DNA of 60,695 nt from an uncultured Candidatus Saccharibacteria bacterium (lineage in GTDB: Bacteria > Patescibacteriota > Minisyncoccia > Phycocordibacterales > UBA918): the NCBI GenBank assembly GCA_964608605.1, contig CAZSOS010000001.1, positions 55,193 through 115,887 of the forward strand, read 5' to 3'. Shown one piece after another: positions 13,853-48,332 of this stretch. The number at the start of each line of letters is the position of its first letter. Positions within the stretch are counted from its first letter, which is position 1. The notes under the pieces were generated by a model. That model did not search any database. It saw only the letters and a program-made list of their open reading frames with translations, and was not told the DNA's origin. A program made the translations under genes and the position numbers.

Positions 13853-13993
13853 ATGTCTGACAGAAAATTCCCCGAAGGATTCTATTGGGGTGAGACGAGG
13901 CAGTGCCTCGTCGCAAGGCCGGACTGGAGCGGAGTGGAAGGAGGCGGGGTCGCGCAAATTTTTATTAAATTTCTTAATAAAAATTATGTGTGA
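13853..13993 (+). pseudogene. Displaced original 5' end of the GH1 gene (MSDRKFPEGFYWG) running into the inserted element
   Basis: ATG 6 nt after TATAAT; the first 13 codons match the GH1 FPxxFxWG motif; stops at TGA 13991-13993. Confidence 0.75.
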
Positions 13994-14046
13994 CCGGCTA
14001 CGGCCTCAAAGTATATGAAACAATTTCCAAAAAATTTTTACTGGGG
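13891..14046 (+). mobile_element. 156-bp folded insertion supplying a replacement gene start
   Basis: Bounded by TATTGGGG / TACTGGGG. Hairpins at 13894-13912 and 13948-13995. Ends in a diverged copy of the GH1 N-terminus. Confidence 0.6.
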
Positions 14047-15238
14047 CGCGGCCGCGGCCTCATACCAAGTAGAAGGAGGGATCGAGAACACGGATTGGGC
14101 CAAGGCGGCCCGCGAAGGTCGGGTGCCACCCTGCGGCCGCGCTTGCGATCATTATCATCGCTATGAAGCGGATTTCGATCTGGCCAAAGAGCTCGGACAC
14201 AACGCGCATCGACTATCGGTGGAGTGGGCGCGCATCGAGCCTGAGGAAGGGAAATTCGACGAGGCGGCCATCGAGCATTACCGAGAAGTGTTGCGGGCGC
14301 TGCGCGCCCGTGGCCTGGAACCCTTCATCACCATCTGGCACTTTACTCTGCCGCTATGGTTCTCCGAAAGGGGAGGATTCGAGAACAAGGATTCGATCGA
14401 GATCTTCGCTAGGTACTGCGCCTACGTCGTCGACCAGCTCGGCGATCTCTGCGTCAATTTCTCCACCATCAACGAGCCCTCAGTGTATGGCTCCAACGGC
14501 TGGCTGCGCGGCAGCTGGCCGCCCTTCAAGCGCTTCGCGGCCACCGACCTGGTAGCCATCACGAATTCCGGTCGCACCTTCGAGTCTAAAGCTAATAAAG
14601 GTATCAAACCTTTATTCACTTGGATGAGGGTGATGAAGAATCTTGCCCGGGCCAATAACGCCGCCTACCGGGAGATAAAAAAAGTGCGTCCGGAGACCAA
14701 TATCAACTTCGTGCACCATGTCATCGTCTTCGACTCAAATTGGAATCCGTTCAACAAGCTCAAGGCCTATATCGCCAATAGTCAGTGGACCCATAAGTTC
14801 ATGAAGCGCACGGCCGGCCATTATGACTCGATCGGACTGAACTATTATTTCTATACAAAGTTCGGCGATAAACGAGAGTGGCGCAAGACCGACATGGATT
14901 GGAACTTCGCTCCCGAACGCATCTATGACGCCTTGATGATGTTGAAACGTTATCAGAAACCCATCTACGTATCGGAAGCCGGTATCGCCGACGCGGCGGA
15001 TTCTGGCAGGGCGGAATATATCACCAGACAGGTGGAAGGAACGTGGCGCGCCCTTAAAGACGGCGTGGACGTGAGAAGCCATATCTACTGGTCCCTGCTC
15101 GACAACTACGAGTGGGCGCTCGGGTTCGATAAGCGTTTCGGCCTGATCAAGATCGATTACGACACCTTGGAGCGCAAGGTGCGCCCGAGCGCGTATGTTT
15201 ATAAAAAGATCATCGCCGATAACGGGCTAGAATCTTAA
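14015..15238 (+). CDS. Glycoside hydrolase family 1 (beta-glucosidase-like)
   Basis: FYWGAAAASYQVEG, TINEP acid/base, YVSEAG nucleophile, WSLLDNYEW. Confidence 0.95.
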   Translation: MKQFPKNFYWGAAAASYQVEGGIENTDWAKAAREGRVPPCGRACDHYHRYEADFDLAKELGHNAHRLSVEWARIEPEEGKFDEAAIEHYREVLRALRARGLEPFITIWHFTLPLWFSERGGFENKDSIEIFARYCAYVVDQLGDLCVNFSTINEPSVYGSNGWLRGSWPPFKRFAATDLVAITNSGRTFESKANKGIKPLFTWMRVMKNLARANNAAYREIKKVRPETNINFVHHVIVFDSNWNPFNKLKAYIANSQWTHKFMKRTAGHYDSIGLNYYFYTKFGDKREWRKTDMDWNFAPERIYDALMMLKRYQKPIYVSEAGIADAADSGRAEYITRQVEGTWRALKDGVDVRSHIYWSLLDNYEWALGFDKRFGLIKIDYDTLERKVRPSAYVYKKIIADNGLES

Positions 15239-15301
15239 AATGGACCTATTTGTTTCTGGATATCCTTTTTAATTTTGAGATTTTCATTCTAAAATTGAAA
15301 C

Positions 15302-16234
15302 ATGTCCTGGGTTTTTCTGGCAGCCGGCGCGCAACTCCTCAATGCTATCGTCGCCATCGGTGACAAGTATCTGGTAACCGACGAACGGCGGATGCCCAAA
15401 CCGTTCGTGTACGGTTTTTATACTTGTCTGCTGACGTCCTTTTGGCTCCTCATTTATCCCTTCGGCTTCATTCCGCAATTAGCCGCGCTGGGGATACCGC
15501 AATTCAGCAACATTCAATTTCCCACGCTCGAAGTCGTGGGGCTCTCGTTCTTCTCGGCTTACACTTTCTTCCTGGCCATCGTATCCCTCTACGGCACCTT
15601 AAAGCGGGCCGACACCTCGGACGTGATGCCTGTGGTCGGCGCCGTGTCGGCCATCGCCACCTTTGGTCTGTCGGTGTTGTTTCTCAACTCGGCCTACTCC
15701 TCGAACGTGATTTGGGGCGTGCTTCTCTTGGCTACCGGCACCTTCTTGGTATCGCATCTGCGTTTTTCCACCAACATCGCTTTAGCGGCGGTTCATAGCG
15801 GTCTTTTCTTCGCGCTTCATTACATTTCGATGAAGGGCCTCTTTATCTCCACTAACTTCGATGACGCCTTCTTTTGGTCGCGCGTGGCATTGATCCTCTT
15901 CGCTCTTTCTTGGCTTTTGGTACCGAATTATCTCGACGTCATCAAGACCCAGAGCAAATCCACTTCGAAGACCACCGGGGTCATGGTCTTTGGCAACAAG
16001 ATCTTGGCTGGCGTGGCGTCATTCATGATCCTCAAGGCGACCGACTGGGGCGACGTGGCGGTGGTGCAGGCGCTCGATGGTCTTAAGTTTGTGTTCATCC
16101 TACTGATCGGACTGGCTCTCGGTTCGTGGTTGCCTAAAGCAGCTCGAGAGAAGGACCGCAGCTTCCGCACCATCGTGCGCAAATTCCTTTACGTGACCAT
16201 TATTTGTATCGGTTTTATTCTTTTGTTCGAATGA
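15302..16234 (+). CDS. EamA/DMT-like membrane transporter
   Basis: 310 aa, about 10 TM segments in two repeats. Confidence 0.65.
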   Translation: MSWVFLAAGAQLLNAIVAIGDKYLVTDERRMPKPFVYGFYTCLLTSFWLLIYPFGFIPQLAALGIPQFSNIQFPTLEVVGLSFFSAYTFFLAIVSLYGTLKRADTSDVMPVVGAVSAIATFGLSVLFLNSAYSSNVIWGVLLLATGTFLVSHLRFSTNIALAAVHSGLFFALHYISMKGLFISTNFDDAFFWSRVALILFALSWLLVPNYLDVIKTQSKSTSKTTGVMVFGNKILAGVASFMILKATDWGDVAVVQALDGLKFVFILLIGLALGSWLPKAAREKDRSFRTIVRKFLYVTIICIGFILLFE

Positions 16235-17247
16235 GTACGGTTAGAAAATGGCTTACATATATCGGCGTGGTCGTCTTGGCCTTTACGGTAGTAGGCGCCG
16301 CGTTCTTTTTTATCCATGACAAGCCGGAACCGGAGCGGATCGTCTATGGCATGTCATTCAACACCTTCTATGCCGAGGAGCTCGGACTCGATTGGCGCGA
16401 GGCGTACGACGCCATACTGAACGACCTAGGGGTACGCCATCTGCGCCTGGCCGCTCACTGGCCGATGCTAGAGCCCGAGCGCGGCCACTTCTCCTTCGCC
16501 GAGATCGATCATCAGCTCACGGAGGCCGAAAAGGTCAGCGCGGACGTGATCCTGGCGGTCGGCCGCCGTTTGCCCCGGTGGCCCGAGTGCCATATCCCGG
16601 AGTGGGCGGCCGGTCTGTCCTGGGAGGAACAGAAAGAAGAATTGCGCGCCTATATCGAAGCGGTGGTAACCCGCTATCGCGGTCATGACAGCGTCATCAT
16701 GTGGCAAGTGGAGAACGAACCTTATCTGGGGGTCTTCGCCCGCGAACATTGCGACGAACTCGATGAAGAATTCCTGAAGGAAGAGATCGCCTTGGTAAAA
16801 AGCCTCGATCCGTCCCGTCCGGTCTTGGTTACCGACAGTGGCAATCTGGGCACCTGGTCCGGCGCCTATCGGCACGGCGACGCCTTCGGCACCAGCGTGT
16901 ACGTCTATTTTTGGAATCCGGAGTTCGGCCAGTTTAGGAGCATGCTGCCGCCTTGGTTCTATCGCGCCAAAGAGGCTCTCGTTCGCCTTATCTATGGCGC
17001 CAAACCGACCTACCTGATCGAGCTTTCGGCCGAGCCTTGGCTCTTGGAACCCATCACCAACGTCGACGTCGAGACGCAGTATTCGCGCATGGATGTCGGC
17101 AAGGTCCGGGAGATCGTTGAATATGCCGAGAAAACCCGCTACGATAAGCAATATCTATGGGGCGCGGAGTGGTGGTATTGGCTGAAGCAGAGAGGCCATG
17201 ATGAAATGTGGGAACTAGGGCGAGAGCTGTTTCAAGTTAAAAATTAA
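16231..17247 (+). CDS. Membrane-anchored clan GH-A glycoside hydrolase (beta-galactosidase/GH5-like)
   Basis: TM anchor, GRRLPRWPECH, WQVENEP, IELSAEPW, LWGAEWW. ATG overlaps the upstream TGA. Confidence 0.75.
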   Translation: MSTVRKWLTYIGVVVLAFTVVGAAFFFIHDKPEPERIVYGMSFNTFYAEELGLDWREAYDAILNDLGVRHLRLAAHWPMLEPERGHFSFAEIDHQLTEAEKVSADVILAVGRRLPRWPECHIPEWAAGLSWEEQKEELRAYIEAVVTRYRGHDSVIMWQVENEPYLGVFAREHCDELDEEFLKEEIALVKSLDPSRPVLVTDSGNLGTWSGAYRHGDAFGTSVYVYFWNPEFGQFRSMLPPWFYRAKEALVRLIYGAKPTYLIELSAEPWLLEPITNVDVETQYSRMDVGKVREIVEYAEKTRYDKQYLWGAEWWYWLKQRGHDEMWELGRELFQVKN

Positions 17248-17256
17248 AATCTCAAA

Positions 17257-18387
17257 ATGAAAAATTACCAGACGAAGTTCAAGGTCATGAGCGCTGTCTG
17301 CGGCGGCGTTCTGGCCTTATGCTTGCCTTTCATTGTCTCAGCTGAAACCGTGGTTCGTACCGGACACTCGGTCTCTATCGGTGCCAGCCAGACGGTGGAG
17401 AACGATTTCTATGCCGCCGGCAGCAACGTCACTCATTCCGGGCAGGTGAAAGAAGATCTCTATGCCGTCGCCGGGTCGGTGACGGTGAACGGTCCGGTGG
17501 GTAGCGATCTCACCGTGCTTGGTGGTACGGTGCAGGTGCACGCGCCGGTCAAGGACGACGTTAGGATCGTTGGCGGCGACGTGGTCATCGCGAGCGAGGT
17601 CGGCGGCGACGTGTTCGTCATCGGCGGTCGTCTGCAGGTGCTGTCTTCGGCCTCCGTCGCCGGCAACGTGTATTTCTATGGTGGCGAAGCCGACATCGAA
17701 GGGCCGGTCAAAGGTCTTTTGATGGGTAGCGCCGAATCCTTCTTCATCAACGGCGAAGTAGGCGGGATCGATGCTTCCGCTCTGCGTCTTGGTCTTGGCG
17801 ACAAGGCGGTGGTCCGCGGCGACGCGCGCTACGCCGGAGCCGCCGAGATCGACCGAGCGCCGGGAGCGGTGGTCGAAGGCGAGATCGCCCGGACGGCTGA
17901 CGCGGCCGCCGATGAAGGGAAGGGAGGAGGCACCGGCCTAGTCTTCGCGCTGGCCTTCGTGTTCACGACGCTGTGCTTCTTCCTGCTGCTTCGCGAACCG
18001 CTGTCGAAGCTGGTCTTCGATATCAGGCATGACCCGCTTCGCGTCGGTCTTGTCGGCCTGGCGGTGGCTATCGGCGCGCCGATCCTGTCCTTCGTCCTCT
18101 TGGCCACCGTGCTCGGCGCCTGGATCGGCTTCGTCCTGCTGTTGGTGACCCTTCTTCTCTTCATCGTCTGTTTCATCCTCATGCCTATCCTGCTCGGTGG
18201 GTATATCCTGGGATATTTCTTCAAGGGACGTAGCCTGGACGTCTTTTCGATAGGCGTCGGTCTGGTCGCTCTGCTCCTCTTTACCTTCGTTCCGGTCCTG
18301 GGCAAATTCCTCTTCCTGGCCGCTTTCCTGATGACTGTCGGGGCCGTGGCCAACGCTCTCTATAAAAAGGCCCGGAATATAGGTTGA
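17257..18387 (+). CDS. Bactofilin-like (polymer-forming) repeat protein with C-terminal TM domain
   Basis: Repeated V-x-G-D-V beta-helix-like motifs, then 5 TM segments. Confidence 0.7.
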   Translation: MKNYQTKFKVMSAVCGGVLALCLPFIVSAETVVRTGHSVSIGASQTVENDFYAAGSNVTHSGQVKEDLYAVAGSVTVNGPVGSDLTVLGGTVQVHAPVKDDVRIVGGDVVIASEVGGDVFVIGGRLQVLSSASVAGNVYFYGGEADIEGPVKGLLMGSAESFFINGEVGGIDASALRLGLGDKAVVRGDARYAGAAEIDRAPGAVVEGEIARTADAAADEGKGGGTGLVFALAFVFTTLCFFLLLREPLSKLVFDIRHDPLRVGLVGLAVAIGAPILSFVLLATVLGAWIGFVLLLVTLLLFIVCFILMPILLGGYILGYFFKGRSLDVFSIGVGLVALLLFTFVPVLGKFLFLAAFLMTVGAVANALYKKARNIG

Positions 18388-18462
18388 CAGGATAATATTT
18401 CTGTGTAATTAATATACAAGGAAGTACCGTTTTATCATCGACATCCAAGAAAGGGAAGTCAA

Positions 18463-18804
18463 ATGGGAGTTTTCATTTTGATCGGACGTGGCATCAGGGC
18501 CAGGACGATCTTGGTGACCGGACTCAGCGCTATCAGCGAAAGACCGTTCGGACGCGTTACTAAGGGAGCGTACAAAGACGGTCAGTTGGGCACTGGCGCT
18601 CATATCGTCACCCGTCACCTCAACCCCTCCGAGCGTCGGGCGTATTACTACGCCAAATCGAACGGGCTGAAGGTTATCGAGCTGGAAGAGGTACCCAGTA
18701 GCTACCCTACGATCCCCCCGGCTGAAGCGGTCGTCAGGCGGGGGGTGAATCCCAGGCTGCGGATCATTCCGACGCCGACCATTGCGTTCAGGGGTTACCC
18801 CTGA
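18463..18804 (+). CDS. Hypothetical protein
   Basis: 113-aa ORF with purine-rich upstream sequence; no recognisable family. Confidence 0.45.
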   Translation: MGVFILIGRGIRARTILVTGLSAISERPFGRVTKGAYKDGQLGTGAHIVTRHLNPSERRAYYYAKSNGLKVIELEEVPSSYPTIPPAEAVVRRGVNPRLRIIPTPTIAFRGYP

Positions 18805-18872
18805 ATATTGGGCCGGGGCGCTTGCGCCCCGGCCCACCCACAAGCCACCAGGTTTTGCTACAATACTATCGT

Positions 18873-19559
18873 ATGCAAAAACCGGTGGCTTTTTTCGATA
18901 TCGACGGTACGGTGTTCCGCTCCAGTCTCTTAATCGAACTGGTGGATCGCTTGCTCGACGCCGGGATCTTTCCTCCGAGCTCCAGCGAGGAGTTCAGCGA
19001 GTTGAAGCGCCGCTGGCAGGATCGCGAAGGCCGCTACGAGGACTACATCGACGCTGTGGTCCGGGTGTTCCGGCGCGACATCAAAGGCGTCTTTTATGGC
19101 GACCTGGCCGACATCGGTCGCGAAGTCGTGGCCGAGAGGAGTAAGCGCGTCTACCGCTACACCCGCGATCTCATCAAGGAACTGAAACAGGACGGCTACT
19201 ACCTGGTGGCCATATCGCAGTCGCCGAAGACCATCCTCGACGACTTCTGCCGCCAATACGGCTTCGACAAGGTCTACGGCCGCATCTATGAGCTGGGTCC
19301 GCAAGACCGCTTCACCGGCGAGGTGACCGACGAGCACCTGATCTCCAACAAGGCCAATATCATCGCCCGCGTGTTTGAGAACCCCGAGTTGACGCGCGAG
19401 CGTTCCGTGGGGGTCGGCGACACCGAAGGCGACATCCCGCTCCTGGAAGCGGTGGAGCGGCCGATCTGCTTCAATCCCAACCAGCTGCTCCTAGAGCACG
19501 CCAAGCGGCGCGGGTGGCCTTTGGTTGTAGAGAGGAAGGACGTTATTTATGAGTTATAA
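18873..19559 (+). CDS. HAD-IB family phosphatase (SerB-like)
   Basis: FFDIDGT motif I, VGDTEGD motif IV, CFNPN. Confidence 0.9.
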   Translation: MQKPVAFFDIDGTVFRSSLLIELVDRLLDAGIFPPSSSEEFSELKRRWQDREGRYEDYIDAVVRVFRRDIKGVFYGDLADIGREVVAERSKRVYRYTRDLIKELKQDGYYLVAISQSPKTILDDFCRQYGFDKVYGRIYELGPQDRFTGEVTDEHLISNKANIIARVFENPELTRERSVGVGDTEGDIPLLEAVERPICFNPNQLLLEHAKRRGWPLVVERKDVIYEL

Positions 19560-19688
19560 CTAAACTTACTGAAAATCGAGATCTGCGGCATTGGACTTCA
19601 CAAAATAACACTCGCTGGACTAACTTTGCCCCACTCGCGTTATTTTGTTTGTCCGCCTTGCATCTGATCGATTTTCAACAAGTTTTAG
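19560..19688. repeat. ~129-bp long imperfect hairpin element
   Basis: Outer arms CTAAACTTACTGAAAATCGA / TCGATTTTCAACAAGTTTTAG; inner GGAC/GTCC and ACAAAATAAC/GTTATTTTGT. Confidence 0.7.
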
Positions 19689-19707
19689 GGTGTTGTACAA
19701 TGTGTAT

Positions 19708-19950
19708 ATGTCAAAGAAACTTTATCGAAGCGCTGATAACAAGCTCATCGCCGGCGTCTGCGCCGGTCTAGCCGAGTATTTCGACCACGATCCGACCTTG
19801 TGGCGCCTGGGCTTCGCGCTATTTCTGGTCGTTACCGGCTTCATGCCCGGCATCGTGCTCTACCTCATCGCTTGGATCGTGATGCCGCTCCCGGGCGAGA
19901 CCACCTTCGTCGAGGTCAAACCGGAGCCGGAAGCCAAAGACCAAATTTAG
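19708..19950 (+). CDS. pspC: PspC domain protein
   Basis: KKLYRS...[12 protein letters not shown]...YLIAWIVMP. Confidence 0.9.
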
Positions 19951-20020
19951 ACGCCGACTTATACAGGGTTTTCCCGGATCTTCCCAGACTCGATTCGCGG
20001 GTGCGGTATAATCGTATGAA

Positions 20021-20650
20021 ATGGAGCTTGAACGCAATGAACTCAATACCGCCGGCGCGGGCATGAACGCCGCCGACCGGCGTTCCAATATAGTCAGGAC
20101 GCTGACCGCCAACGACATCATCTTCTGGGGCTCGGACGCCTTCATCTCGGTGGCGCTGGCCCTCTTCGTGGTGTCGCACATCGGCGAGGCCACCATTTTG
20201 AACGTCGGCATCGCGCTCATGATCTACCGCGTGGTCGGTGCTATATCGGCTGTGCCGATCGGCCGCTGGTTCGACTCGCACAAAGGCTATCTCGACGAAG
20301 TGCGCGGCCTGTCCTTCGCCTGTCTGGCCGCCGGTAGCGTCTACGTGGCGCTCAGCTTCGCCACGGCCGTCTGGCAACTCTACGTCGGTATGTTCTTCCT
20401 GGGCATCTTCGTTACTGTCAGCCTCACTTCCTGGCGCATCCTTTTCTATAGCAATATCGGCAAGAAGCAGTTCGGCCAGACTATCGGCGTCTATCAGATG
20501 CTCTACTCGCTCGGTATCGGCCTCTTCCTGGCGGTCGGCGGCTTCGTCGGCGATCGCTATGGCTATGATGCCGTGCTGCTTCTTGGCGGCTTCCTGATGA
20601 TGTTCGGTAGTCTCTTGCCGATGCTGATCAGAGGGCATTTCAAGAAGTAG
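20021..20650 (+). CDS. Half-size MFS-like membrane protein
   Basis: 209 aa, 6 TM, GGFVGDRYGY loop motif. Confidence 0.65.
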   Translation: MELERNELNTAGAGMNAADRRSNIVRTLTANDIIFWGSDAFISVALALFVVSHIGEATILNVGIALMIYRVVGAISAVPIGRWFDSHKGYLDEVRGLSFACLAAGSVYVALSFATAVWQLYVGMFFLGIFVTVSLTSWRILFYSNIGKKQFGQTIGVYQMLYSLGIGLFLAVGGFVGDRYGYDAVLLLGGFLMMFGSLLPMLIRGHFKK

Positions 20651-20727
20651 AGGTCGATCCACCACCGGAAAAACCTTTGGAGGAGCCTGCCGAAGGTACG
20701 GGGATGGGTGAGGGAGGGTGAGAAAAG

Positions 20728-20754
20728 ACAAGGCGGCCTTTCGGGCCGCCTTGT
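20728..20754. terminator. Intrinsic terminator-like hairpin
   Basis: ACAAGGCGGCC/GGCCGCCTTGT stem with T-rich flanks. Confidence 0.7.
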
Positions 20755-20759
20755 TCTTA

Positions 20760-20949
20760 TTTATGATATCCTCAATGATATCATAAACCTCTATCCGCAC
20801 CATCGACCATACCAACCGGTCCACACGGTCTTGATATCATTGAGGATATCATAAGTTTGAAAACCTTTGAGTCTTAGTGTCATCAGAAGTATCAGAACTT
20901 ACGTGAGCTTGCACGTTACCACTTCTTGATATCATTGAGGATATCATGA
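20760..20949. repeat. Array of three GATATC-N6-GATATC dyad sites (one inverted, two direct)
   Basis: Sites at 20760-20787 (spacer CTCAAT), 20829-20854 and 20924-20949 (spacer ATTGAG). Confidence 0.9.
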
Positions 20950-20953
20950 CCAA

Positions 20954-20986
20954 GTAAAGGCCGGCCCCGTAGGGGCCGGCCTTTAC
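20954..20986. terminator. Terminator-like hairpin downstream of rnj
   Basis: 15-bp perfect stem GTAAAGGCCGGCCCC/GGGGCCGGCCTTTAC. Confidence 0.75.
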
Positions 20987-21014
20987 TAACCACTGGCAAC
21001 TACCAACTAAAAAC

Positions 21015-23018: not shown

Positions 23019-23065
23019 GAATTTTTATTGAATGTTAATGGGATTTTTAATTTGAATATCGGATG

Positions 23066-25280: not shown

Positions 25281-25292
25281 TATGATTGGTGT

Positions 25293-29642: not shown

Positions 29643-30545
29643 ATGGCAACACTTTACACGCAGCAATCGAAGAATATCCGCAAGACCTGGTTCTTGATGA
29701 TCGGGTTCTTCGTGATGGTGATCGCCATCGGCTATTTTCTCAACTGGTACTACAACGACGTGTCGATAATGTACGTAGCCATCGCCTTCGCGCTCTTTAT
29801 GAACTTCGCCAGCTACTGGTGGAGCTCTAGCTTGGTAGTGACCATGACCGGCGCTAAGCCGGCCGACCCTCAAAGACATCGAGACCTCATCAACGTGGTC
29901 GAGAACCTCTCCATCACCGCCGGACTGCCGATGCCGAAGGTCTACGTGGTGAACGATTCGGCCCCGAACGCTTTCGCCACCGGTCGTAACCCTAAGAATG
30001 CCGTGGTAGCTGCCACTACCGGTCTTCTGGATATCTTGGATCGCACCGAGCTTGAAGGCGTCATGGCCCATGAGCTCTCTCATGTGGGGAATCGCGACAT
30101 GCTGGTCTCGACCGTGGCCGTGGTGTTGGCCGGTTTCGTGGCCATCATCGCCGACATCTTCATGCGCTCGATGATGTTCGGGGGAGGCCGAAGCGATGAC
30201 AATAAGGCCGGAGCGATCTTCCTGATACTCGGGATCGTCGGCATCATCCTAGCGCCGATCGCCGCTCAGATGATTCAACTGGCTATCTCCAGAAAGAGGG
30301 AATACCTGGCCGACGCTTCCGGTGCTTTGCTGACCCGCTACCCAGAAGGCCTGGCTTCGGCTTTGGAGAAGATCAGTCTTCATAGCCAACCGATGAAGCG
30401 AGCCAACAACGCCACGGCGCATCTTTTCATTGCCGATCCTTTCGGAGATAACAAGCAGACCCTGGGGCAGAAGATCTCCAATCTGTTCCAGACCCATCCG
30501 CCGGCGCAGGAGCGGATTCGCATCCTCCGAGACATGGGGAAATGA
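29643..30545 (+). CDS. htpX: Zinc metalloprotease HtpX (M48)
   Basis: PNAFATGR, AHELSH, SRKREYLADA, FQTHPP. Confidence 0.96.
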   Translation: MATLYTQQSKNIRKTWFLMIGFFVMVIAIGYFLNWYYNDVSIMYVAIAFALFMNFASYWWSSSLVVTMTGAKPADPQRHRDLINVVENLSITAGLPMPKVYVVNDSAPNAFATGRNPKNAVVAATTGLLDILDRTELEGVMAHELSHVGNRDMLVSTVAVVLAGFVAIIADIFMRSMMFGGGRSDDNKAGAIFLILGIVGIILAPIAAQMIQLAISRKREYLADASGALLTRYPEGLASALEKISLHSQPMKRANNATAHLFIADPFGDNKQTLGQKISNLFQTHPPAQERIRILRDMGK

Positions 30546-30666
30546 GCCCAAAATAAGCGAATTCGCGTTCGTTTCCCTCGGCATCTCACTCTCTGGACAA
30601 TTTCGTCCCGGTCGTGAGGTGTCTTCAGTCCAACGAACACAACTTCATCTTATTTTGGACTCATTT
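30540..30666. repeat. ~127-bp long hairpin element, homologous to 48209-48332
   Basis: Arms ATGAGCCCAAAATAAG / CTTATTTTGGACTCAT; inner GTTCGTT/AACGAAC and TGGAC/GTCCA. Confidence 0.8.
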
Positions 30667-30697
30667 TTGGACGTTTGACTTTGGATTGTACAGAAAT

Positions 30698-30754
30698 AAC
30701 GCAAATCACTTGCGTTTATTTTTATACCTTGCTATAATGCAAATCAATTGCATT
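30698..30754. promoter_or_regulatory. Two Fur-family-like 9-1-9 operators plus -10 box
   Basis: AACGCAAATCACTTGCGTT (30698-30716) and AATGCAAATCAATTGCATT (30736-30754); TATAAT at 30733-30738. Confidence 0.6.
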
Positions 30755-30755
30755 T

Positions 30756-31430
30756 ATGAAGATGGCGATATTGGGCAAAGGAGGTAGTGGCAAGTCGACA
30801 GTAGCGGCTCATTTAACGCGCTATTTCGCCGCGGACGGTTATAAAGTTTTGGCTATCGATGCTGATCATAATATGGACCTGGGATTTAATCTTGACGTCG
30901 AGCCGACCAAGTTTCTCGGTACTGATCCGGGACATATCAAGGAGTTTACCGGTGTCGGGCGTGAAGCCTCCTTCAAAGACGCGCTTGATCATGCTATGGC
31001 AGACGGCTTGACGTTTTCCTTCGCGCCGGCCGATGTCTTCACCGCCCATTACGCGGAGCCGGTCGGTCCGAGGACCTGGTTGATGACAGCCGGTCCTCAT
31101 ACCGATACCGTGCGCTCCCGTGAGGCTTGTAGTCATTCGCTCGCGGCACCTCTGAAGGTTTATTTGCCACTTTTAACGCTTAGTGACCGTCAGATGGTGG
31201 TGATCGATGAGCGGGCCGGTACCGACCCGGTAGCTACGGGTGTCTTGAGCGGCGTCGACCTGGCCGTCATCGTTCGGGAGAACACGCCGAACTCCCGCCG
31301 CGTGGCCGAGCAGATCGCGCGGGAATTGGAGCTGCAGAATATTTCTTATCTGGCGGTAGATAATAAAGAGCAAAACATGGAGATCGATCTGGCGGCTATC
31401 ACCGAAAGTATTTTGAAAAAATTATCCTAG
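30756..31430 (+). CDS. CooC-like (MinD/ParA superfamily) ATPase
   Basis: GKGGSGKS deviant Walker A, AIDADHN, VVIDERAG. Confidence 0.8.
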   Translation: MKMAILGKGGSGKSTVAAHLTRYFAADGYKVLAIDADHNMDLGFNLDVEPTKFLGTDPGHIKEFTGVGREASFKDALDHAMADGLTFSFAPADVFTAHYAEPVGPRTWLMTAGPHTDTVRSREACSHSLAAPLKVYLPLLTLSDRQMVVIDERAGTDPVATGVLSGVDLAVIVRENTPNSRRVAEQIARELELQNISYLAVDNKEQNMEIDLAAITESILKKLS

Positions 31431-31518
31431 CTTACCGATGTTTTCAGCGTGCCCTTCGTAATGCATGGCGGAGGGCACGCTGGCAATATCGCCAGCGTAG
31501 TTCGTTAAGGAGACCTCG

Positions 31519-31890
31519 ATGTCTTTTCCATCCGTTGCCAAGTATCTGGAGCAGGGTCTTTCTAGCGCCGAGGCTTTGCTCGCCGCCGTGAAGGAGGATT
31601 GCGCCGAAGGGGTGGCCTATCTTCATCGGCGGGCGCACGAAGCCGCCGGTTCTCCGGAAGGAATTTTCTGGCTGGAGGACCCCAACTCCAAGCTGGGGAA
31701 ACAGCTCATCCGCATCCACGCCTCTGACGCCGTCCGGCCATTGGTCGAGCGTCATGTCTGCCACGGACAGTCGTTGACGTTCTTCAACTGTTGCGGCGGA
31801 CAGGTCGGCGGTAAGCGGAAGGATCCGGACGAACTGATCCGGATCCAGATCGAATGTCAGGCCGGTCCTTTAGCGTACGCTGACTGTTAG
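31519..31890 (+). CDS. Cys/His-rich hypothetical protein (CCGG motif)
   Basis: AAGGAG RBS; five Cys besides the CC pair and several His; no family recognised. Confidence 0.65.
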   Translation: MSFPSVAKYLEQGLSSAEALLAAVKEDCAEGVAYLHRRAHEAAGSPEGIFWLEDPNSKLGKQLIRIHASDAVRPLVERHVCHGQSLTFFNCCGGQVGGKRKDPDELIRIQIECQAGPLAYADC

Positions 31891-31956
31891 TCATGCGCGC
31901 GCGACCACGCCCCGCCGCTTTGCGGCGGGGCGTTTATTTGCTACTTTATAGACAAC

Positions 31957-32316
31957 ATGAAACCTCGTCGTCGGAGCAAGAAGCGGGAGCAGATACTGGC
32001 GGTGCTGGAGCGGGCCGGCTGCGCTTTGTCGGCCGCTGATATTCATAAGAAAGTATCAGAGGTCGATCTGACCACCGTCTACCGCAATCTGGAGATATTC
32101 GTGGCTGACGGACTGGTAAAGAAACTTGATCTGGACAAGGACGAGGCGCTGTACGAATTCAAGGAGGCCGATCATCATCATGCCATCTGTACTGATTGCG
32201 ACAAGGTGATCCACTTCGAGGTTTCCGATCAGGCGATCATGAAACTCATAAAAGTGAAAGGCTTCGAGCCAGAATCTTTGGAACTGACGGTCCGGGGGAA
32301 ATGTGAACATGACTAA
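31957..32316 (+). CDS. Fur-family transcriptional regulator
   Basis: TTVYRNL HTH, HHHAICTDC, C-terminal GKC. Confidence 0.93.
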   Translation: MKPRRRSKKREQILAVLERAGCALSAADIHKKVSEVDLTTVYRNLEIFVADGLVKKLDLDKDEALYEFKEADHHHAICTDCDKVIHFEVSDQAIMKLIKVKGFEPESLELTVRGKCEHD

Positions 32317-33300: not shown

Positions 33301-33452
33301 AGGCGGAGAGAATTTCTCTCATTACATGAGCAGTACACCTTTTGGATATTTTGCTCCAAGTTTTCGCAAAATACCTCAAAAGGTCTTCGAATCTCACGAA
33401 ACAGTCTCCCAGACTGTTTCTTCCGTCCACCTGGACTCACTTCGTTCGTCTG
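33301..33452 (-). mobile_element. ~155-bp folded element downstream of tRNA-Ser, ending in a degenerate copy of the tRNA T-arm/acceptor
   Basis: Direct repeat AGGCGGAGAGA at 33301-33311 and 33456-33466; internal hairpins. Confidence 0.55.
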
Positions 33453-33539
33453 CGGAGGCGGAGAGATTCGAACTCTCGAAGCCCTTTCAGGCTTACCACG
33501 ATTCCAGCGTGGCGCACTAGACCACTATGCGACGCCTCC
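33453..33539 (-). tRNA. tRNA-Ser(GGA), CCA not encoded
   Basis: Acceptor GGAGGCG/CGCCTCC, anticodon arm CCACG-CTGGAAT-CGTGG, long variable arm, GTTCGAATC T-loop, discriminator G. Confidence 0.97.
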
Positions 33540-33643
33540 GTATATTGATATTGCGCTCGACATAATAGCGCAAAGTGGGCGGTTTACCAACTGCGGCGGG
33601 CGCGGCCGAAGGCCGCGCCCTGTTATAATTCAACCACGATGAA

Positions 33644-33761
33644 TCCCGTACGAAATAGCGGACATGTAAGATAAAATAACGCGCACAGTATGGTCGTGAT
33701 TTTAAACACAAATAATATTGGTCGACGAACTTCGAAGGTTCGTCCCCTATTTCGTACGGGA
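33644..33761. mobile_element. MITE-like element: 15-bp perfect terminal inverted repeats, 4-bp TGAA target duplication
   Basis: TCCCGTACGAAATAG ... CTATTTCGTACGGGA, flanked by TGAA at 33640-33643 and 33762-33765. Confidence 0.75.
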
Positions 33762-34324
33762 TGAAACGAGATGACTGGATGCTTCTAAGCCTCACGTTCC
33801 TCACCGGTCTGGCGATCGGCATGTACGTCTATATCGTGGCTTTCAAACCCACGTACGTGCCGGAGGACCTGGGCGGCACCGAGGCGGCGGCCAGCGAGTG
33901 GAGCATGGTTGGCAAGCGTTTTGCCACCGGTCCTAGTGGATACGTTCAGCCTTCGTTCCGACTTTTAGGAGATGGCCAGTACGTCTACCTGCCTGGAGGG
34001 ATGGACGATAGCGCTCCCACACCCATAGAGGGACGGATCTCCAGAGGGCTGATGCGCGAAGTGCGGGCCGCCGATCCCCGCGTGCCCGGTTACGCCGCGG
34101 GCGCGAGCCCGGAGCTCTGTTCCGGCCAGGGTTATGAATATCAGATAACCATCACGGGCGCGACCTACCTGCTCGGACCTTGCCTGGCCGCAGTAGACGC
34201 TGGTTATGCCGCTGTCTTGGAGCGGGTGTGGTTGGAGATAGAGGGTCCGGAGCCTGGTCGGCGCTACGACAGCTTTGCCGACTGGGCGGAGGATTGGATC
34301 AGGAGGAATGTCGGGGTGGAGTGA
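33761..34324 (+). CDS. Membrane-anchored hypothetical protein
   Basis: N-terminal TM, 187 aa; start codon regenerated by the MITE end. Confidence 0.7.
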   Translation: MKRDDWMLLSLTFLTGLAIGMYVYIVAFKPTYVPEDLGGTEAAASEWSMVGKRFATGPSGYVQPSFRLLGDGQYVYLPGGMDDSAPTPIEGRISRGLMREVRAADPRVPGYAAGASPELCSGQGYEYQITITGATYLLGPCLAAVDAGYAAVLERVWLEIEGPEPGRRYDSFADWAEDWIRRNVGVE

Positions 34325-37043: not shown

Positions 37044-37078
37044 TTTAGTTACCTGGTTTCCTGGTTACCTAGTCACGC

Positions 37079-37111: not shown

Positions 37112-37136
37112 CTGTTTAGCAGCCACTATATTCTTC

Positions 37137-37844: not shown

Positions 37845-37866
37845 TCGCCTCATTGTATCATCCTGC

Positions 37867-37897
37867 TGAAACAAACATCCGCCGGACAGCGTATAAT
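37867..37897 (+). promoter_or_regulatory. ECF-type promoter TGAAAC-N17-CGTA overlapping TATAAT
   Basis: Directly upstream of the ECF sigma gene. Confidence 0.55.
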
Positions 37898-37906
37898 GGG
37901 TGGGCC

Positions 37907-38482: not shown

Positions 38483-39474
38483 ACGACACGACAGAAAACA
38501 ATCGTTTGGCCGATAGCGTCTTGGAACGCCTGGAACGCGAAGGCATCACGCCTCGCTCCCGCTTCTATTGGATGACCCAGGAATACGGCCTTTGGGGCGC
38601 CTGGGTGGTCAGCGTCATACTCGGATCCTTCGCCTTGGCGGTGGCCTCCTTCTCCTCTCTGTACGTGGGGTATTCTCTGTATGAAGCCACTCATGACACC
38701 TTCTTGACCTTCCTACTCGACACCCTCCCTTATCTCTGGTTCGCCGCCTTCGCGGTCATGCTGCTTTCGGCCTATTTCAATCTGCGGTACACCAAGAAAG
38801 GCTATCGATATTCCTTCCTCTGGGTCGCCGGCAGCAGTTTCGGCTTCAGCGTGGCCGGCGGCATTCTGCTCCATTTCCTGGGGGCCGGATATTATTTGGA
38901 CCACTACCTAGGTCGTAGTCTGGACACCTATCATTCCCGCGCCGAACTGGAGACCATGGTCTGGCAGAATCCGCCGGCCGGCCGTCTGGTCGGCTTCGGC
39001 CGGCCTCCGGGAGCGGCCGATCAGATCCCGGGCATCATCTTCACCGACGTGAAGGATCGGGAGTGGCAGCTCATGACCACCGACCTGAGCGAGAGGGAAT
39101 CCGATCTCATCCGCTCCGGACGCAAGGTCCGGGTGCTGGTGGCCACTTCGTCCACGCAGTCGGAGGAAGTGATGGTCGTCTGCGGCGTCTTTCCCTGGCT
39201 GCTCGATGAGGCGCCCATGATCGCCAAACTGCGCGACGATCGCCGTCTCTTCGCAGAGAATCTCAAGATCCGCCGCGAGCACGTGGCCGGCGTCATCAGG
39301 GAGGTGTCCAGAGAGGTCTCGGGAGAAGGAGAGGGAGGGCCAAGGCGGCCGGACGTGCTCGATCCTTCCGGCACCTCGAGTTCGGCCATCGCCCTCGATA
39401 CCGTTTCCGGCCAGCCGTCATCCTGCTCCAAATTGCCGCTCTTCCGGGGTCCGGGACCGATTTTAAGACACTGA
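38479..39474 (+). CDS. Putative anti-sigma membrane protein
   Basis: Overlaps the sigma stop codon; 3 TM segments plus an extracellular domain. Confidence 0.6.
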   Translation: MNDTTENNRLADSVLERLEREGITPRSRFYWMTQEYGLWGAWVVSVILGSFALAVASFSSLYVGYSLYEATHDTFLTFLLDTLPYLWFAAFAVMLLSAYFNLRYTKKGYRYSFLWVAGSSFGFSVAGGILLHFLGAGYYLDHYLGRSLDTYHSRAELETMVWQNPPAGRLVGFGRPPGAADQIPGIIFTDVKDREWQLMTTDLSERESDLIRSGRKVRVLVATSSTQSEEVMVVCGVFPWLLDEAPMIAKLRDDRRLFAENLKIRREHVAGVIREVSREVSGEGEGGPRRPDVLDPSGTSSSAIALDTVSGQPSSCSKLPLFRGPGPILRH

Positions 39475-39696
39475 TTAGGATATCTGTCAACGTTGATGTT
39501 GTCGGTAATGGTTATATACTGCCAACATACATGAATGCTCACTGGAAATGGGCTGGGTGGACGAAATAGACGGTCTCGAACCGCACGCGGAATCTTCCGT
39601 GTGCGGTTCATTCGTAAAGTCTCATCCCACTTTGCTCCTTCCGAGGATACATTCATCGTTTAGCAGGATTTACCAACTAAGACCTACCCGATCGTT

Positions 39697-44667: not shown

Positions 44668-44686
44668 TATTGAGCAAAAGATATAG

Positions 44687-44730
44687 TTTAAAGCAAAAAC
44701 ACCAACGAAAGTCGGTGTTTTTGCTTTAAA
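44687..44730 (+). terminator. Intrinsic terminator
   Basis: 17-bp stem TTTAAAGCAAAAACACC/GGTGTTTTTGCTTTAAA. Confidence 0.75.
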
Positions 44731-44880
44731 AGACAGATACGAAAGCATGTCTTTAATAATGTCCTATATAGTCAACGTTTGTTTTTAAAATTTGTCTACG
44801 TTGAGTTTAGTGATTTTTAAGTGCTAAACTGTTTATAGTTTGTGGAGGGTTAATTCTTGTTATTAATTTTCAGAACGATT

Positions 44881-47124: not shown

Positions 47125-47147
47125 GAGATGGTCTTTTGAAAGGAAAC

Positions 47148-47180
47148 AGAAAAGGCGCGAGCGAAGCTCGCGCCTTTTCT
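47148..47180 (+). terminator. Intrinsic terminator
   Basis: AGAAAAGGCGCGAGC-GAA-GCTCGCGCCTTTTCT. Confidence 0.8.
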
Positions 47181-47207
47181 TTGATCAGGTGGTGATATAA
47201 TCGGGGC

Positions 47208-48209
47208 ATGAGAAACTGGCTGGGAAAATTCATGGGCCCGGAGGAAGAGGTAGATCTAAAGCCGCACGCCTTGCAGCGGGCGGCTTTGGTGGGTATGACG
47301 GCCTTGGTCCTGATATCTTTCTCCATCGCCAACCTGCAATCGATCATCTGGTTTTCTTCCGACTGGCTGGTGTCGACCATCCTGCCGGCGGTGGTGACCG
47401 ACGCGACCAATGAGGCGCGCGCGGCCGAAGGCCGCGCGCCGTTGTCGCGCAACTCCTTCCTGGACGAAGCGGCCAGATTGAAGGCTGAGGATATGGCGCT
47501 AAACGGTTACTTCGCTCACTGGAGTCCCACGGGCGTATCTCCTTGGCATTGGTTCGGCGCCGCCGGTTACGCCTATGCCCACGCGGGGGAGAACCTGGCC
47601 GTGCATTTCACCGATTCGACCGCGGTGGTGGATGCCTGGCTCGATTCGCCGACCCACCGCGCCAACATCATGAGCGATCGCTACACCGAGATCGGTATCG
47701 GCACCGCTAAAGGCAGATACGAGGGCTTTGATACCGTCTTCGTGGTGCAGATGTTCGGTACTCCCGTGGCCAACGTGAGCGCGCCGACCGCCATCGATCC
47801 CGCGGCACCGGTTGAAGCCGAAGAGGAAACCGCTACCATCGCGCCGCCGATAGTGGCCGGAGTGGAGACCGATACCAGCGTCGGGGTCACCGATGACGGC
47901 ACGGTGGTCTACGAAAGCTTTGCCGCCACCACGGCGGACAACGTGGAGCAGCTCATCTCCTCGACCGAAGGCAAGACCATCACGCCGCCGTCGGCCCTGA
48001 CTCGGGTCCTTACCTCGCCACGATTGATGCTCCAGATCGCCTATACCATCATCGGCGTCTTGGTGGCGCTGGCGCTCATCGCTTCGATCATGATCGAGTG
48101 GCGCCGCCACCATCCCGTGCAGATAGCCTACGCCACGGCGCTGCTTTTGTTCATGATGGTCCTGTTCGAGGTGCATTTGGCTGTCTCCCGCGGCGTTACC
48201 ATCGCGTAA
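47208..48209 (+). CDS. CAP/SCP-domain membrane protein
   Basis: KAEDMALNGYFAH, AGENLA, WLDSPTHRANI, EIGIG. Confidence 0.92.
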   Translation: MRNWLGKFMGPEEEVDLKPHALQRAALVGMTALVLISFSIANLQSIIWFSSDWLVSTILPAVVTDATNEARAAEGRAPLSRNSFLDEAARLKAEDMALNGYFAHWSPTGVSPWHWFGAAGYAYAHAGENLAVHFTDSTAVVDAWLDSPTHRANIMSDRYTEIGIGTAKGRYEGFDTVFVVQMFGTPVANVSAPTAIDPAAPVEAEEETATIAPPIVAGVETDTSVGVTDDGTVVYESFAATTADNVEQLISSTEGKTITPPSALTRVLTSPRLMLQIAYTIIGVLVALALIASIMIEWRRHHPVQIAYATALLLFMMVLFEVHLAVSRGVTIA

Positions 48210-48332
48210 AACTTCCTAAATGACCGAATTTGCATTCGCCTCAGTCGGACCGCTTGGTCGCTATAGCTCTATCTACGTCTTCCGCGCGGTCCTCCTTCCA
48301 GCGAACGCAACTTCATCTCATTTGGGAAGTTT
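48209..48332. repeat. ~124-bp long hairpin element, homologous to 30540-30666
   Basis: Arms AAACTTCCTAAATGA / TCATTTGGGAAGTTT; inner TTGCATTCGC/GCGAACGCAA and GGACCGC/GCGGTCC. Confidence 0.8.

Follow-up and report, generated by a model that had tools for sequence, protein, structure and literature searches.

A previously undescribed family of hairpin-forming repeats of approximately 125 bases was found in Patescibacteria, which are bacteria with tiny genomes. Three members, herein referred to as E2, E3, and E6, are located in the window, i.e., the whole stretch of 60,695 nucleotides analyzed here, and 11 further copies were found in other Patescibacteria MAGs. These repeats probably form a non-coding, non-autonomous family of ~125-nt palindromic mobile elements of Paceibacteria/Kaiserbacteria-type Patescibacteria, most copies being located at or shortly past stop codons; their mobility may be of the single-stranded DNA type.

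Foldback Elements in the Window

Six stretches of the window (E1-E6) had been predicted to be foldback elements of one or two related families. All six are present at the predicted coordinates and fold better than shuffled sequence. The predicted relatedness was retained for E2, E3, and E6, which are one family, and was lost for E1, E4, and E5, which are separate and unrelated features. Each of E2, E3, E5, and E6 forms a single long hairpin, and E1 and E4 each form several small hairpins in a string. The elements are as follows, with fold z-scores against dinucleotide shuffles given for the plus / minus strand.

E1 region, 13853-14046, plus strand: diverged relic of a GH1 gene start, MSDRKFPEGFYWG...VEGGG (13853-13999); fold z of E1 -4.6 / -3.9
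E2, 19560-19688, plus strand: diverged member of the hairpin family, beginning 2 nt past the TAA stop of a HAD hydrolase gene (18822-19559); fold z -6.7 / -7.9
E3, 30540-30666, plus strand: member of the hairpin family, 121.8 bits with the covariance model; fold z -7.5 / -8.5
E4, 33301-33466, unstranded: 155-nt segment between direct repeats AGGCGGAGAGA (33301-33311 and 33456-33466); fold z -5.2 / -5.0
E5, 33639-33765, unstranded: unrelated miniature insertion with perfect 15-bp terminal inverted repeats TCCCGTACGAAATAG (33644-33658 and 33747-33761); fold z -5.2 / -5.3
E6, 48209-48332, plus strand: member of the core subfamily, 134.1 bits with the covariance model; fold z -8.3 / -8.9

Members of the Hairpin Family

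The homology of E3 and E6 was recovered by alignment, with covariance-model E-values of 1e-30 and 1e-33. This pair had been regarded as the sole unambiguous homology, a restriction that has to be dropped, E2 being a third member. Within the window the copies are old, with 79% identity between E3 and E6 and a much larger divergence of E2. E2 scores 20.5 bits on the plus strand against a covariance model built without it; when it is part of the model, the score is 88.8 bits. E2 is tied to the family because of its similarity to the copy L002c (Smith-Waterman z = 8.3, same orientation), which itself scored 34.7 bits against the model without E2, before L002c had joined any model.

Copies containing the exact 22-mer of the right arm were found in three other Patescibacteria MAGs and one metagenome contig, and diverged copies, both adjoining the 22-mer copies and in relatives, were found using covariance models. 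Further copies with different flanks are present in related metagenomes, and subfamilies of the element are common to different genomes. In these genome fragments, the copy density is 3 per 60.7 kb for the window and 7 per ~52 kb for UBA6201, the highest value seen. The closest within-genome pair, the copies at the E6 site and after groEL in UBA6201, is ~85% identical by eye. No gathering-score match for the elements was found in Rfam 15, where tRNA and rRNA alone were matched; the best sub-threshold match, V_AS5, reached 14.3 bits against a cut-off of 96 bits (E = 2.4). No terminator-like call was obtained on E2, E3, or E6, and a canonical terminator, separate from E3, follows E3.

Hairpin Structure and Strand Asymmetry

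The family copies are imperfect palindromes of ~125 nt ending with (T)AAAC...GTTT(A), with terminal inverted repeats AAAC(T/C)TNC...GNA(A/G)GTTT. Each copy forms one long imperfect hairpin with an uninterrupted basal stem of 16-17 bp, an AAAAT/ATTTT box, and conserved internal-loop bases, the unpaired bases being arranged as small internal loops. An apical CGTA-loop-TACG hairpin is present in most copies. The sequence of the intervening stems is wholly changed between copies, with the pairing kept. The left arm of the core subfamily contains the local palindrome GCGAAT-TTGC-ATTCGC, the right arm being degenerate, and the diverged subfamilies have no consistent local palindrome.

Joint structural alignment, which had been named as a test of the original prediction, yielded a strongly covarying fold for the E2/E3/E6 family. 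Compensatory pairs were found at 19 of the 44 stem pairs in 6 copies and at 30 in 9 copies. For 13 copies, aligned with a structure-guided aligner, double (compensatory) changes were found in 33 of the 44 stem pairs, a number reached by none of 500 shuffles. In these 13 copies, 90.8% of the cells are paired, compared with 69% after shuffling and 32-47% after sliding, and the covariation score is 0.641 vs. 0.222 (0 of 500 shuffles).

The two strands differ in their folding. The antisense strand is the better folder in all 10 copies analyzed with RNA parameters and in all 5 analyzed with DNA parameters; with RNA parameters, the sense (mRNA) strand folds worse by 2.6-25 kcal/mol in every copy. 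The antisense strand has 55 G.U cells vs. 15 on the sense strand, or 28 vs. 12 when the conserved wobble columns are removed (p = 0.017). Where the antisense strand has G.U, the sense strand has A.C.

Position and Orientation of the Copies

A stop codon is located no more than ~8 nt upstream in 9 of the 14 copies, and in two further copies (E3 and L001) the gene stop is inside the element. The copies L014d and L014e are preceded by rRNA genes, and the gene upstream of L009 is not identifiable. The stop often reads TA+A, the final A being that of the element. In all 13 copies for which the context is readable, the element has the orientation of the upstream gene or rRNA. The genes upstream of copies include rplJ, rplL, groEL, 23S rRNA, and HtpX. 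The sense strand is the G-rich (leading) strand in all eight loci, and orientation relative to genes is confounded with orientation relative to replication in every locus. In the IS608 paradigm, the active strand is on the lagging-strand template; this rule is the opposite of the placement suggested by the better-folding strand in the hairpin family.

In the window, the predicted abutments proved to be real for the stop codons at E2, E3, and E6, as well as for the TATAAT box and ATG at E5 and the tRNA end at E4. The outer stem of E3 includes the TGA with which the HtpX/M48 protease gene (29643-30545) ends. The first bases of E6 overlap the TAA stop of a CAP-domain gene (47208-48209), and a TATAAT box is found 1 nt past E6. 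Two further features adjoin E2 and E3.

19672-19701, plus strand: promoter-like site of a leaderless PspC gene (1 site found vs. 0.2 expected), with the -35-like TTTTCA within the right arm of E2 and TACAAT 11 nt past E2
30546-31956, plus strand: window-specific 1.4-kb insertion between HtpX and FUR (31957-32316)

Gain and Loss Among Relatives

Syntenic relatives with spacers of 3-20 nt lack E2 and E6. E2 is missing in L010 and L013, with a HAD-PspC gap of 3-7 nt, and no spacer with the PspC promoter-like site was found in relatives. The E6 site is just 15-20 nt long in L017 and L019 and is filled by a copy of another subfamily in UBA6201 (L018). E3 is missing in L010, L012, and L013, where the HtpX-FUR gap is 5-8 nt. 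Since E3 is inside the 1.4-kb insertion, its absence in relatives is confounded with the absence of this larger insertion, which also contains a bidirectional terminator (30698-30716), a ParA-like ATPase gene (30756-31430), a 56-nt hairpin, and a 123-aa ORF (31519-31890). The groEL copy was found only in UBA6201, and the window has no copy after groEL.

At housekeeping genes (groEL, rplL, HAD, and CAP), the element is present in some close relatives and missing in others, everything else being unchanged. Since syntenic relatives differ in occupancy, the elements undergo gain and loss in the manner of MITEs or REPINs. Fixed positions across relatives, named in advance as a possible refutation of mobility, were not found, and this test therefore favors mobility. 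Among near-identical strains, no precise pair of empty and filled sites was found, and the junctions given are therefore approximate.

Proposed Mechanism and Alternative Explanations

In the proposed mechanism, the strand antisense to the gene would fold and, as folded single-stranded DNA, would be acted on by an enzyme provided in trans. Both the action of the fold, as single-stranded DNA or RNA, and the identity of the moving enzyme are what we infer. The closest analogies would be REPINs, which RAYT-type HUH tyrosine transposases mobilise, and the attC sites of integrons with their bottom strand. Survivorship may account for the uniform orientation: a reactive strand on the leading-strand template would rarely be exposed, so such copies would persist. 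As a side effect, the right arm could give the downstream gene a -35 box, as at E2.

In line with the original prediction, no mobilising enzyme was found in the window, transposase and recombinase domains being absent from the window genes scanned. A candidate enzyme is encoded by a Y1_Tnp/IS200-like gene in UBA6201 (Pfam, 28.1 bits vs. a cut-off of 23). This gene is single-copy and is syntenic with rplJ in a second lineage (L015), for which one weak copy of the element only was found in 21 kb. The gene is not flanked by copies of the element, is not found within the 60-kb window, and scores far under the cut-off of the NCBIfam RAYT model REP_Tyr_transpos (25 bits vs. 80).

A possible, though doubtful, alternative is that the family belongs to the classical MITEs of the IS630/Tc1-mariner type, which move by cut-and-paste, inserting at TA with a preference for CTAG or CTAA and duplicating TA. 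A TAG stop after C would then be a natural target, rebuilt as TA+A, and the orientation would result from post-insertion selection. Elements of the IS630 family use TA as their target and duplicate it on insertion (PMC2170065); that paper cites Tenzen and Ohtsubo (1991), the title of which gives the CTAG preference. The hairpin family resembles such MITEs (PMC2170065) in its short terminal inverted repeats and, for about half of the copies, in apparent TA flanks and CTAG-like targets. TA is found on both sides of AAAC...GTTT in E2, L003a, L003b, L012g, and L018 and, offset by 1, in E6, i.e., in 5-6 of 11 copies; the inferred empty sites are CTAG for E2, L003a, and L018 and CTAA for L012g. TA is also correctly placed in the real empty sites of groEL (TAC-TAG in L010 and L013, TAC-TAA in the window) and CAP (GCC-TAA in L019). 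Additionally, only two tetranucleotides are rarer than CTAG in the window (79 occurrences vs. a mean of 237), which would concentrate insertions at stops. However, TA is self-complementary, so a flanking TA is indistinguishable from terminal inverted repeats that are 2 bp longer, and flanking TA is missing in 5 of the 11 copies. A DDE mechanism predicts neither the co-orientation of 13 of 13 copies nor the antisense-biased wobble pairs. No partner transposase was found: the Pfam lists for ~250 kb of the window and loci contain no DDE transposase, the loci having no DDE domain. Among 185,579 genomes, the right-arm 22-mer, an exact pattern insensitive to diverged ends, matched short elements only and no long element; in viral contigs this 22-mer had no match.

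It is unlikely that the hairpins are cis-acting RNAs in the 3' UTR of the upstream gene, i.e., stabilisers, processing sites, or attenuators, which would have been spread and retained by selection on the transcript and not as selfish DNA. All readable copies are indeed in a transcribed 3' region and co-oriented with the gene, one of them within an rRNA operon spacer; the copies E3, L002b, L003a, and L009 are located between the stop codon and a canonical intrinsic terminator, and the structure and internal-loop bases are conserved. Against this explanation, the mRNA strand is the worse folder, carrying the A.C mismatches, the element comes and goes at groEL, rplL, HAD, and CAP with nothing else changed, and no Rfam family matches.

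Even less probable is that each element is a small gene on the minus strand for a structured antisense RNA of ~130 nt that would target the upstream mRNA at its 3' end. The better folding of the antisense strand and the conservation of G.U pairs and loop bases are consistent with such a gene, but no minus-strand promoter-like site reading into E2, E3, or E6 was found, and the flanks expected to hold the promoter are not conserved between copies.

Comparison With Known Systems

The family has close parallels in REPINs, which have conserved ends and a variable hairpin-forming spacer with common compensatory changes (Bertels and Rainey, 2011, PMC3116915). Like REPINs, the family is non-coding, ~100-130 nt long, extragenic, and dispersed, with one long hairpin, conserved ends, a less conserved spacer having frequent compensatory changes, and no enzyme inside the element. 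A single-copy syntenic Y1_Tnp-like gene was found in at least two related lineages. REPINs form large populations of near-identical copies within a genome, and each of their ends contains a REP sequence, itself a short palindrome. In the genome fragments covered here, the copies within a genome appear far more diverged than this, all readable copies are co-oriented and mostly at stop codons, the REP-like local palindrome is found only in the left arm of the core subfamily, and the host phylum is Patescibacteria. RAYT genes typically have REP/REPIN copies on their flanks; in the loci scanned, no such cognate gene was found, the Y1 gene having no flanking copies and scoring far under the RAYT cut-off.

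ERIC/IRU and Correia (NEMIS) elements are palindromic MITEs of proteobacteria, ~105-155 bp long (ERIC ~127 bp). They are found in transcribed intergenic regions in both orientations, are co-transcribed with their neighbors, and can create promoters. The hairpin family is similar to them in size, imperfect palindromic form, transcribed intergenic sites, a possible TA target, and promoter supply (E2). In contrast, it has no sequence similarity to them, is found in a single orientation, and has a better-folding strand that is not the transcribed sense strand.

The attC sites of integrons are 57-141 bp long, fold as bottom strands, and in sedentary integrons have this strand on the leading-strand template (PMC5371416). 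The family shares with attC an imperfect palindrome that immediately follows an ORF in the same orientation, antisense-strand folding, conserved AAC...GTT at the ends with a variable center, and the bottom strand on the leading-strand template, as in stable arrays. However, its ends are YTAAAC/GTTTAR and not RYYYAAC/GTTRRRY, with AAC/GTT alone in common. An unbroken basal stem of 16-17 bp replaces the R box, unpaired central spacer, and L box, and small internal loops are found instead of extrahelical bases. The neighbors are housekeeping genes (rplJ, rplL, groEL, and rRNA) and not cassettes; no integrase or attI was found, the Phage_integrase domain being absent from the window and loci.

Separate Features E1, E4, and E5

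It is highly improbable that all six stretches form one superfamily in which E1, E4, and E5 are too diverged to align: similar size, folding better than shuffles, and 10-11-mers common to the elements are in its favor, but the word sharing is at chance level, E1, E4, and E5 are matched neither by either covariance model nor by any family copy in pairwise alignment (z < 2.5), and the terminal repeats with the ATGAA duplication of E5, the tRNA-end repeat of E4, and the GH1 relic of E1 each suffice. The three shared words proposed as a sign of relatedness are located where predicted, but shuffled elements share as many. Words of 9-11 nt are shared by shuffled elements as often (P = 0.57, 0.09, and 0.12; all element pairs, both strands), and two or more shared 10-mers were found in 22% of trials with random genomic segments. 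The words are therefore no evidence of relatedness, and the shuffles agree with the earlier caveat that they could partly be chance.

E5 is a separate insertion with terminal inverted repeats and a target duplication. ATGAA flanks it on both sides (33639-33643 and 33761-33765), and the empty site in the relative L010, TATAATTACTACCAATGAAGCG, has a single ATGAA. E5 is located between the TATAAT box and the ATG of gene 33761, and its insertion separated this leaderless gene start from its TATAAT box.

E4 is a duplication of a tRNA end, the layout of which resembles an attL/attR pair. It ends at the 3' end of tRNA-Ser(GGA) (33452-33539, minus strand), and this 3' end is the second AGGCGGAGAGA copy. 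The repeat is 11 nt long (2 matches vs. 0.05 expected). The corresponding site in L010 is ~100 nt long and has no repeat.

E1 is a composite including the relic of the GH1 gene start plus hairpins. A small GC hairpin interrupts the relic, and an AT-rich hairpin follows; the real GH1 start is found downstream of the relic, at 14015 (MKQFPKNFYWGAAAASYQVEGG). The word TGGAAGGAGG in E1 is most simply a coding remnant of the GH1 'VEGG' motif.

Foldback Elements in the Analyzed Window

The window has a GC content of 54% and is syntenic with Kaiserbacteria/Paceibacteria-type Patescibacteria MAGs (HtpX identity of 87-90%). An exact look-up of its HtpX sequence returned no record, and an Rfam search of the window revealed one tRNA and no other Rfam family. 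All six foldback elements of the original prediction, herein referred to as E1-E6, are present:

E1, 13891-14046: small hairpins in strings; overlaps a diverged second copy of the start of a GH1 gene, with its own TATAAT box in front
E2, 19560-19688: single long hairpin
E3, 30540-30666: single long hairpin
E4, 33301-33452: small hairpins in strings; has AGGCGGAGAGA on both sides (33301 and 33456), of which the second is the 3' end of tRNA-Ser
E5, 33644-33761: hairpin with perfect 15-bp terminal inverted repeats forming its closing stem, and ATGAA at both flanks
E6, 48209-48332: single long hairpin

Folding of all six stretches surpasses that of dinucleotide shuffles (z from -3.9 to -8.9). The strongest scores belong to E2, E3, and E6, each of which forms a hairpin of 124-129 nt. 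Three words shared between the elements had been taken as signs of a common origin. These words are indeed present but have no value as evidence for kinship, being matched as well by shuffled elements (P = 0.09-0.57, with every element pair and both strands counted); at least two common 10-mers were found in 22% of the trials with random genomic segments. E3 and E6, already singled out as homologous, are the sole pair aligning among the six, and a ten-way alignment revealed nothing further. The proposed single family of six does not hold, as E1, E4, and E5 match neither the covariance models described below nor any of the copies found.

A Family of Palindromic Repeats

E2, E3, and E6 belong to a family of imperfect palindromes of about 125 nt with (T)AAAC...GTTT(A) ends. 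The first query, a 22-mer taken from the right arm conserved in E3 and E6, was used to scan 185,579 species genomes. Matches were found in three other Patescibacteria MAGs, belonging to Kaiserbacteria (locus L001), UBA6201 (GCA_002422025.1, L002), and Paceibacterota (L003). A two-arm pattern scan of metagenomes yielded six loci: one new true copy (L009), a duplicate of L001, and four false positives in a conserved coding region reading like a sigma-54 activator. A covariance model built from six copies (R1) recovered diverged copies beside the seeds (L002a, L002c, and L003b; letters mark single copies within a locus) and assigned 20.5 bits to E2, on the plus strand only. E2 also aligned with L002c in the same orientation (z = 8.3) and with no other element class.

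The second covariance model (R2) was run on relatives fetched via the flanking proteins. Matches were found in UBA6201 after groEL (L012), in the rRNA operon region (L014d and L014e), and between the CAP and S24 genes (L018). A weak match followed rplJ in another lineage (L015). In related metagenomes, additional copies were found, with flanks that differ. The family had no match in a scan of viral contigs or in a blastn search of plasmids and phages, and Rfam searches at the gathering score and at permissive E-values returned only tRNA and rRNA. The 13-mer AGTCTCCCAGACT, common to E4 and L014, was rejected as a sign of relationship, about 19 such shared 13-mers being expected by chance over those bases.

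Hairpin Structure and Strand Asymmetry

The RNAalifold consensus of the family is one long hairpin, with compensatory changes in 19 of 44 pairs for six copies and in 30 of 44 for nine. For 13 copies aligned to the model, a fit to structure that favors pairing, paired cells reached 90.8%, compared with 69% after shuffling of partners and 32-47% after sliding. In the same alignment, double-sided changes were found in 33 of the 44 pairs, and the covariation score was 0.641 versus 0.222; none of 500 shuffles reached any of these measures, and the earlier MAFFT-based results agree. Despite complete turnover of the stem, the copies keep the AAAC/GTTT ends, a GGA...GAA internal loop, a GA after the apical hairpin, and an AAAT box, which in most copies is part of AAAAT. 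The apical CGTA-loop-TACG is kept in most copies.

Relative to the upstream gene, the antisense strand gives the more stable fold in all 10 copies with RNA parameters, by 2.6-25 kcal/mol, and in all five copies with DNA parameters. There are 55 wobble pairs on the antisense strand versus 15 on the sense strand, or 28 versus 12 without the conserved wobble columns (p = 0.017). The elements are locally C-rich against a sense-strand background that is G-rich in each of the seven other loci as well as in the window. Since the sense strand is G-rich, we infer that a leading- or coding-strand C-to-T bias would place the wobbles on the sense strand, and mutation bias was therefore rejected as the source of the antisense G.U excess. 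Small ORFs within the element (MSEFAFASV... in sense and MKLRSLEG... in antisense) were also dismissed, as their ATG is missing in E3 and all diverged subfamilies and their variation is non-synonymous.

Position Relative to Genes

Of the 14 copies, 11 are tied to the stop codon of a co-oriented gene. Nine of these start between an overlap with the stop codon and 8 nt after it. In the other two, E3 and L001, it lies inside the element, the latter containing the last codons and the stop of a ribonucleotide reductase gene. In five copies (E6, L003a, L014a, L012g, and L018), a TAA stop is completed by the first A of the element. The 23S rRNA precedes one copy and a 5S region another, and L009 has no identifiable upstream gene. 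An ordinary terminator is found 3' of E3, L002b, L003a, and L009, which places these elements in 3' UTRs.

The right arm of E2 contributes a -35-like hexamer to the TACAAT box before the leaderless pspC gene. Leaderless-looking genes, with TATAAT a few bases 5' of the ATG, are numerous in the window. Boxes of the TATAAT/TACAAT type were found just 2-9 nt 5' of the annotated ATG at 13840-13855, 19696-19712, 33622-33641, and 48334-48344, suggesting that this organism makes frequent use of leaderless mRNAs.

Gain and Loss of Elements

The positions of the elements vary among relatives, whereas fixed positions had been expected of cis-regulatory RNAs. In the syntenic relatives L010 and L013, the HAD and PspC genes are 3-7 nt apart; thus, E2 is absent there. 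Similarly, a CAP-S24 spacing of 15-20 nt in L017 and L019 means that E6 is absent. The site after groEL is occupied by a family copy in UBA6201 and by a plain terminator in L010, L013, and the window. The UBA6201 copy at the E6 site belongs to another subfamily and, judged by eye, looks about 85% identical to the copy found after groEL in that genome. The nearest relatives of E6 are copies at other loci of other genomes. Hence, this site was occupied or converted independently, and copies spread within a genome recently.

E3 is missing from four relatives. Its case for mobility is confounded by its location at the left edge of a window-specific 1.4-kb insertion between HtpX and FUR (30546-31956), which is absent from four syntenic relatives and contains an ORF of 123 aa as well as the gene of a ParA/MinD-like P-loop ATPase. 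Reads over E3 represent relatives only as 3x fragments; one contig (~86% identity) skips 30537-30719, with only 27 nt on the far side, and was not relied on. Reads on L014 revealed paralogous copies with other flanks and no empty alleles.

Comparison with Known Repeats

In different respects, the family resembles REPINs, ERIC/Correia elements, and attC sites, but each of these has at least one defining feature that it fails to show. No dispersed repeat family was reported for Patescibacteria in the literature searched. The family is herein filed as a new addition to the small palindromic non-autonomous repeats of bacteria; the stop-codon abutment, single orientation, and antisense-strand fold are unusual traits that could mark a separate variant.

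Genomes of Patescibacteria (CPR) are very small and compact. Gain and loss of an element at the 3' ends of housekeeping genes represent ongoing intragenomic mobility in such reduced genomes. The elements are usable as a strain-typing marker, are a likely cause of assembly breaks, and account for odd long intergenic hairpins, hybrid promoters, and TAA stops in annotation. Additionally, the strict orientation together with the antisense fold offers a clean natural test of ssDNA mobilization (HUH or attC-like) in CPR bacteria.

Possible Routes of Mobilization

Among the genes of the window that were scanned, none showed a transposase or recombinase domain, in agreement with the original prediction. 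Mobilization as ssDNA is consistent with the folding strand, the conserved loop bases, and the strict orientation, as well as with half of the copies having no clear duplication. By this route, the antisense hairpin would be the enzyme substrate, as in REPINs moved by RAYT tyrosine transposases or in the attC sites of integrons. The single orientation may reflect survivorship: copies would persist when the leading-strand template carries their reactive strand, as has been described in sedentary integrons (PMC5371416).

A candidate enzyme gene, encoding an IS200-like HUH domain (Y1_Tnp), was found upstream of rplJ in UBA6201 (L014, 34-612) and in the L015 lineage (10001-10693). It occupies the same neighborhood in two lineages whose proteins are only 68% identical, and thus behaves as a single-copy resident of the genome, unlike an insertion sequence. 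It has no flanking family copies and scores far below the RAYT model. The Y1_Tnp profile had no match in the window.

Cut-and-paste transposition of the IS630 type at TA stands slightly behind. TA is found on both sides in five or six copies; the reconstructed targets are CTAG, the third rarest tetranucleotide, in three copies and CTAA in one; and real empty sites have TA within the stop codon. Such insertion would account for a TAG stop becoming TA+A but leaves the orientation and the strand asymmetry unexplained, and a partner transposase was not seen. The ssDNA route is placed slightly ahead, and both routes stand on much less firm ground than the general claim that the palindromic family is mobile.

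In its fullest form, the ssDNA route would have the element target stop codons and remake them as TA+A. The bottom-strand hairpin would be recognized via conserved loop bases, like attC or REP sites, and the mover would be the syntenic Y1 HUH gene or another enzyme not yet linked to such elements. We consider it unlikely that the family is a novel ssDNA mobile site of Patescibacteria uniting bottom-strand loop-base recognition, stop targeting, leading-template persistence, and a newly implicated enzyme.

Other Elements, Repeats, and Palindromes

E5 is single-copy in all sequences examined. Its empty site in L010 has a single ATGAA, which includes the start codon of a leaderless gene. For the repeat bracketing E4, 0.05 matches are expected; L010 lacks this repeat as well as the 114-aa ORF left of E4, and E4 has the look of a scar left at the tRNA end by an integrase-type insertion. 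The relic in E1 (FPEGFYWG...VEGGG, compared with FPKNFYWG...VEGG at the GH1 start) is broken by a small hairpin and followed 3' by an AT-rich hairpin. A seventh long hairpin, E7 (39526-39662, 137 nt, z = -5.0 / -5.9), precedes the gene of a 1656-aa surface protein and is missing from the corresponding spacer of L010; its fold is good, but no family copy matches it, and it was rejected as a member.

A 37-nt AT-rich inverted repeat (15266-15302 and 17228-17264, 86% complementary) encloses two genes, one for a 310-aa protein of unknown function and the other for a 347-aa protein resembling glycoside hydrolases. Its left arm ends at the first ATG, and its right arm includes both the stop codon of the second gene and the start of the gene that follows; a mobile or invertible segment of 2 kb may be delimited by these arms. 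The palindromic 20-28-nt box TGATATCATTGAGGATATCA has four copies (within 20743-20967 and at 9433-9460), three of them forming nested inverted repeats in the spacer of 190 nt that follows the minus-strand gene 19916-20824; this arrangement looks like an operator array. An AT-rich near-perfect palindrome at 56059-56150, with 46-nt arms of GAAATTC/GAATTTC units, bridges the gap from the FKBP gene to where the tRNA-guanine transglycosylase gene starts; near the L003 element (about 1950-1990), there is a run of similar kind, GAATTTCGAATT.

In L014 (UBA6201 contig DISV01000005), an apparent second 5S copy at 8975-9330, 3' of the 5S rRNA gene 8806-8915, is split into five pieces by four hairpin-forming inserts. 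The same locus has a 169-nt tRNA (8282-8450) with an intron-like insert and a 23S gene with a large ORF-bearing insert. Two GC-rich hairpins of the window, at 33592-33624 and 47411-47443, share 88% identity over 33 nt (TGMGGCGSGCGCGGCCGAAGGCCGCGCSCYGTT); the CAP-domain gene (47208-48209) contains the second.
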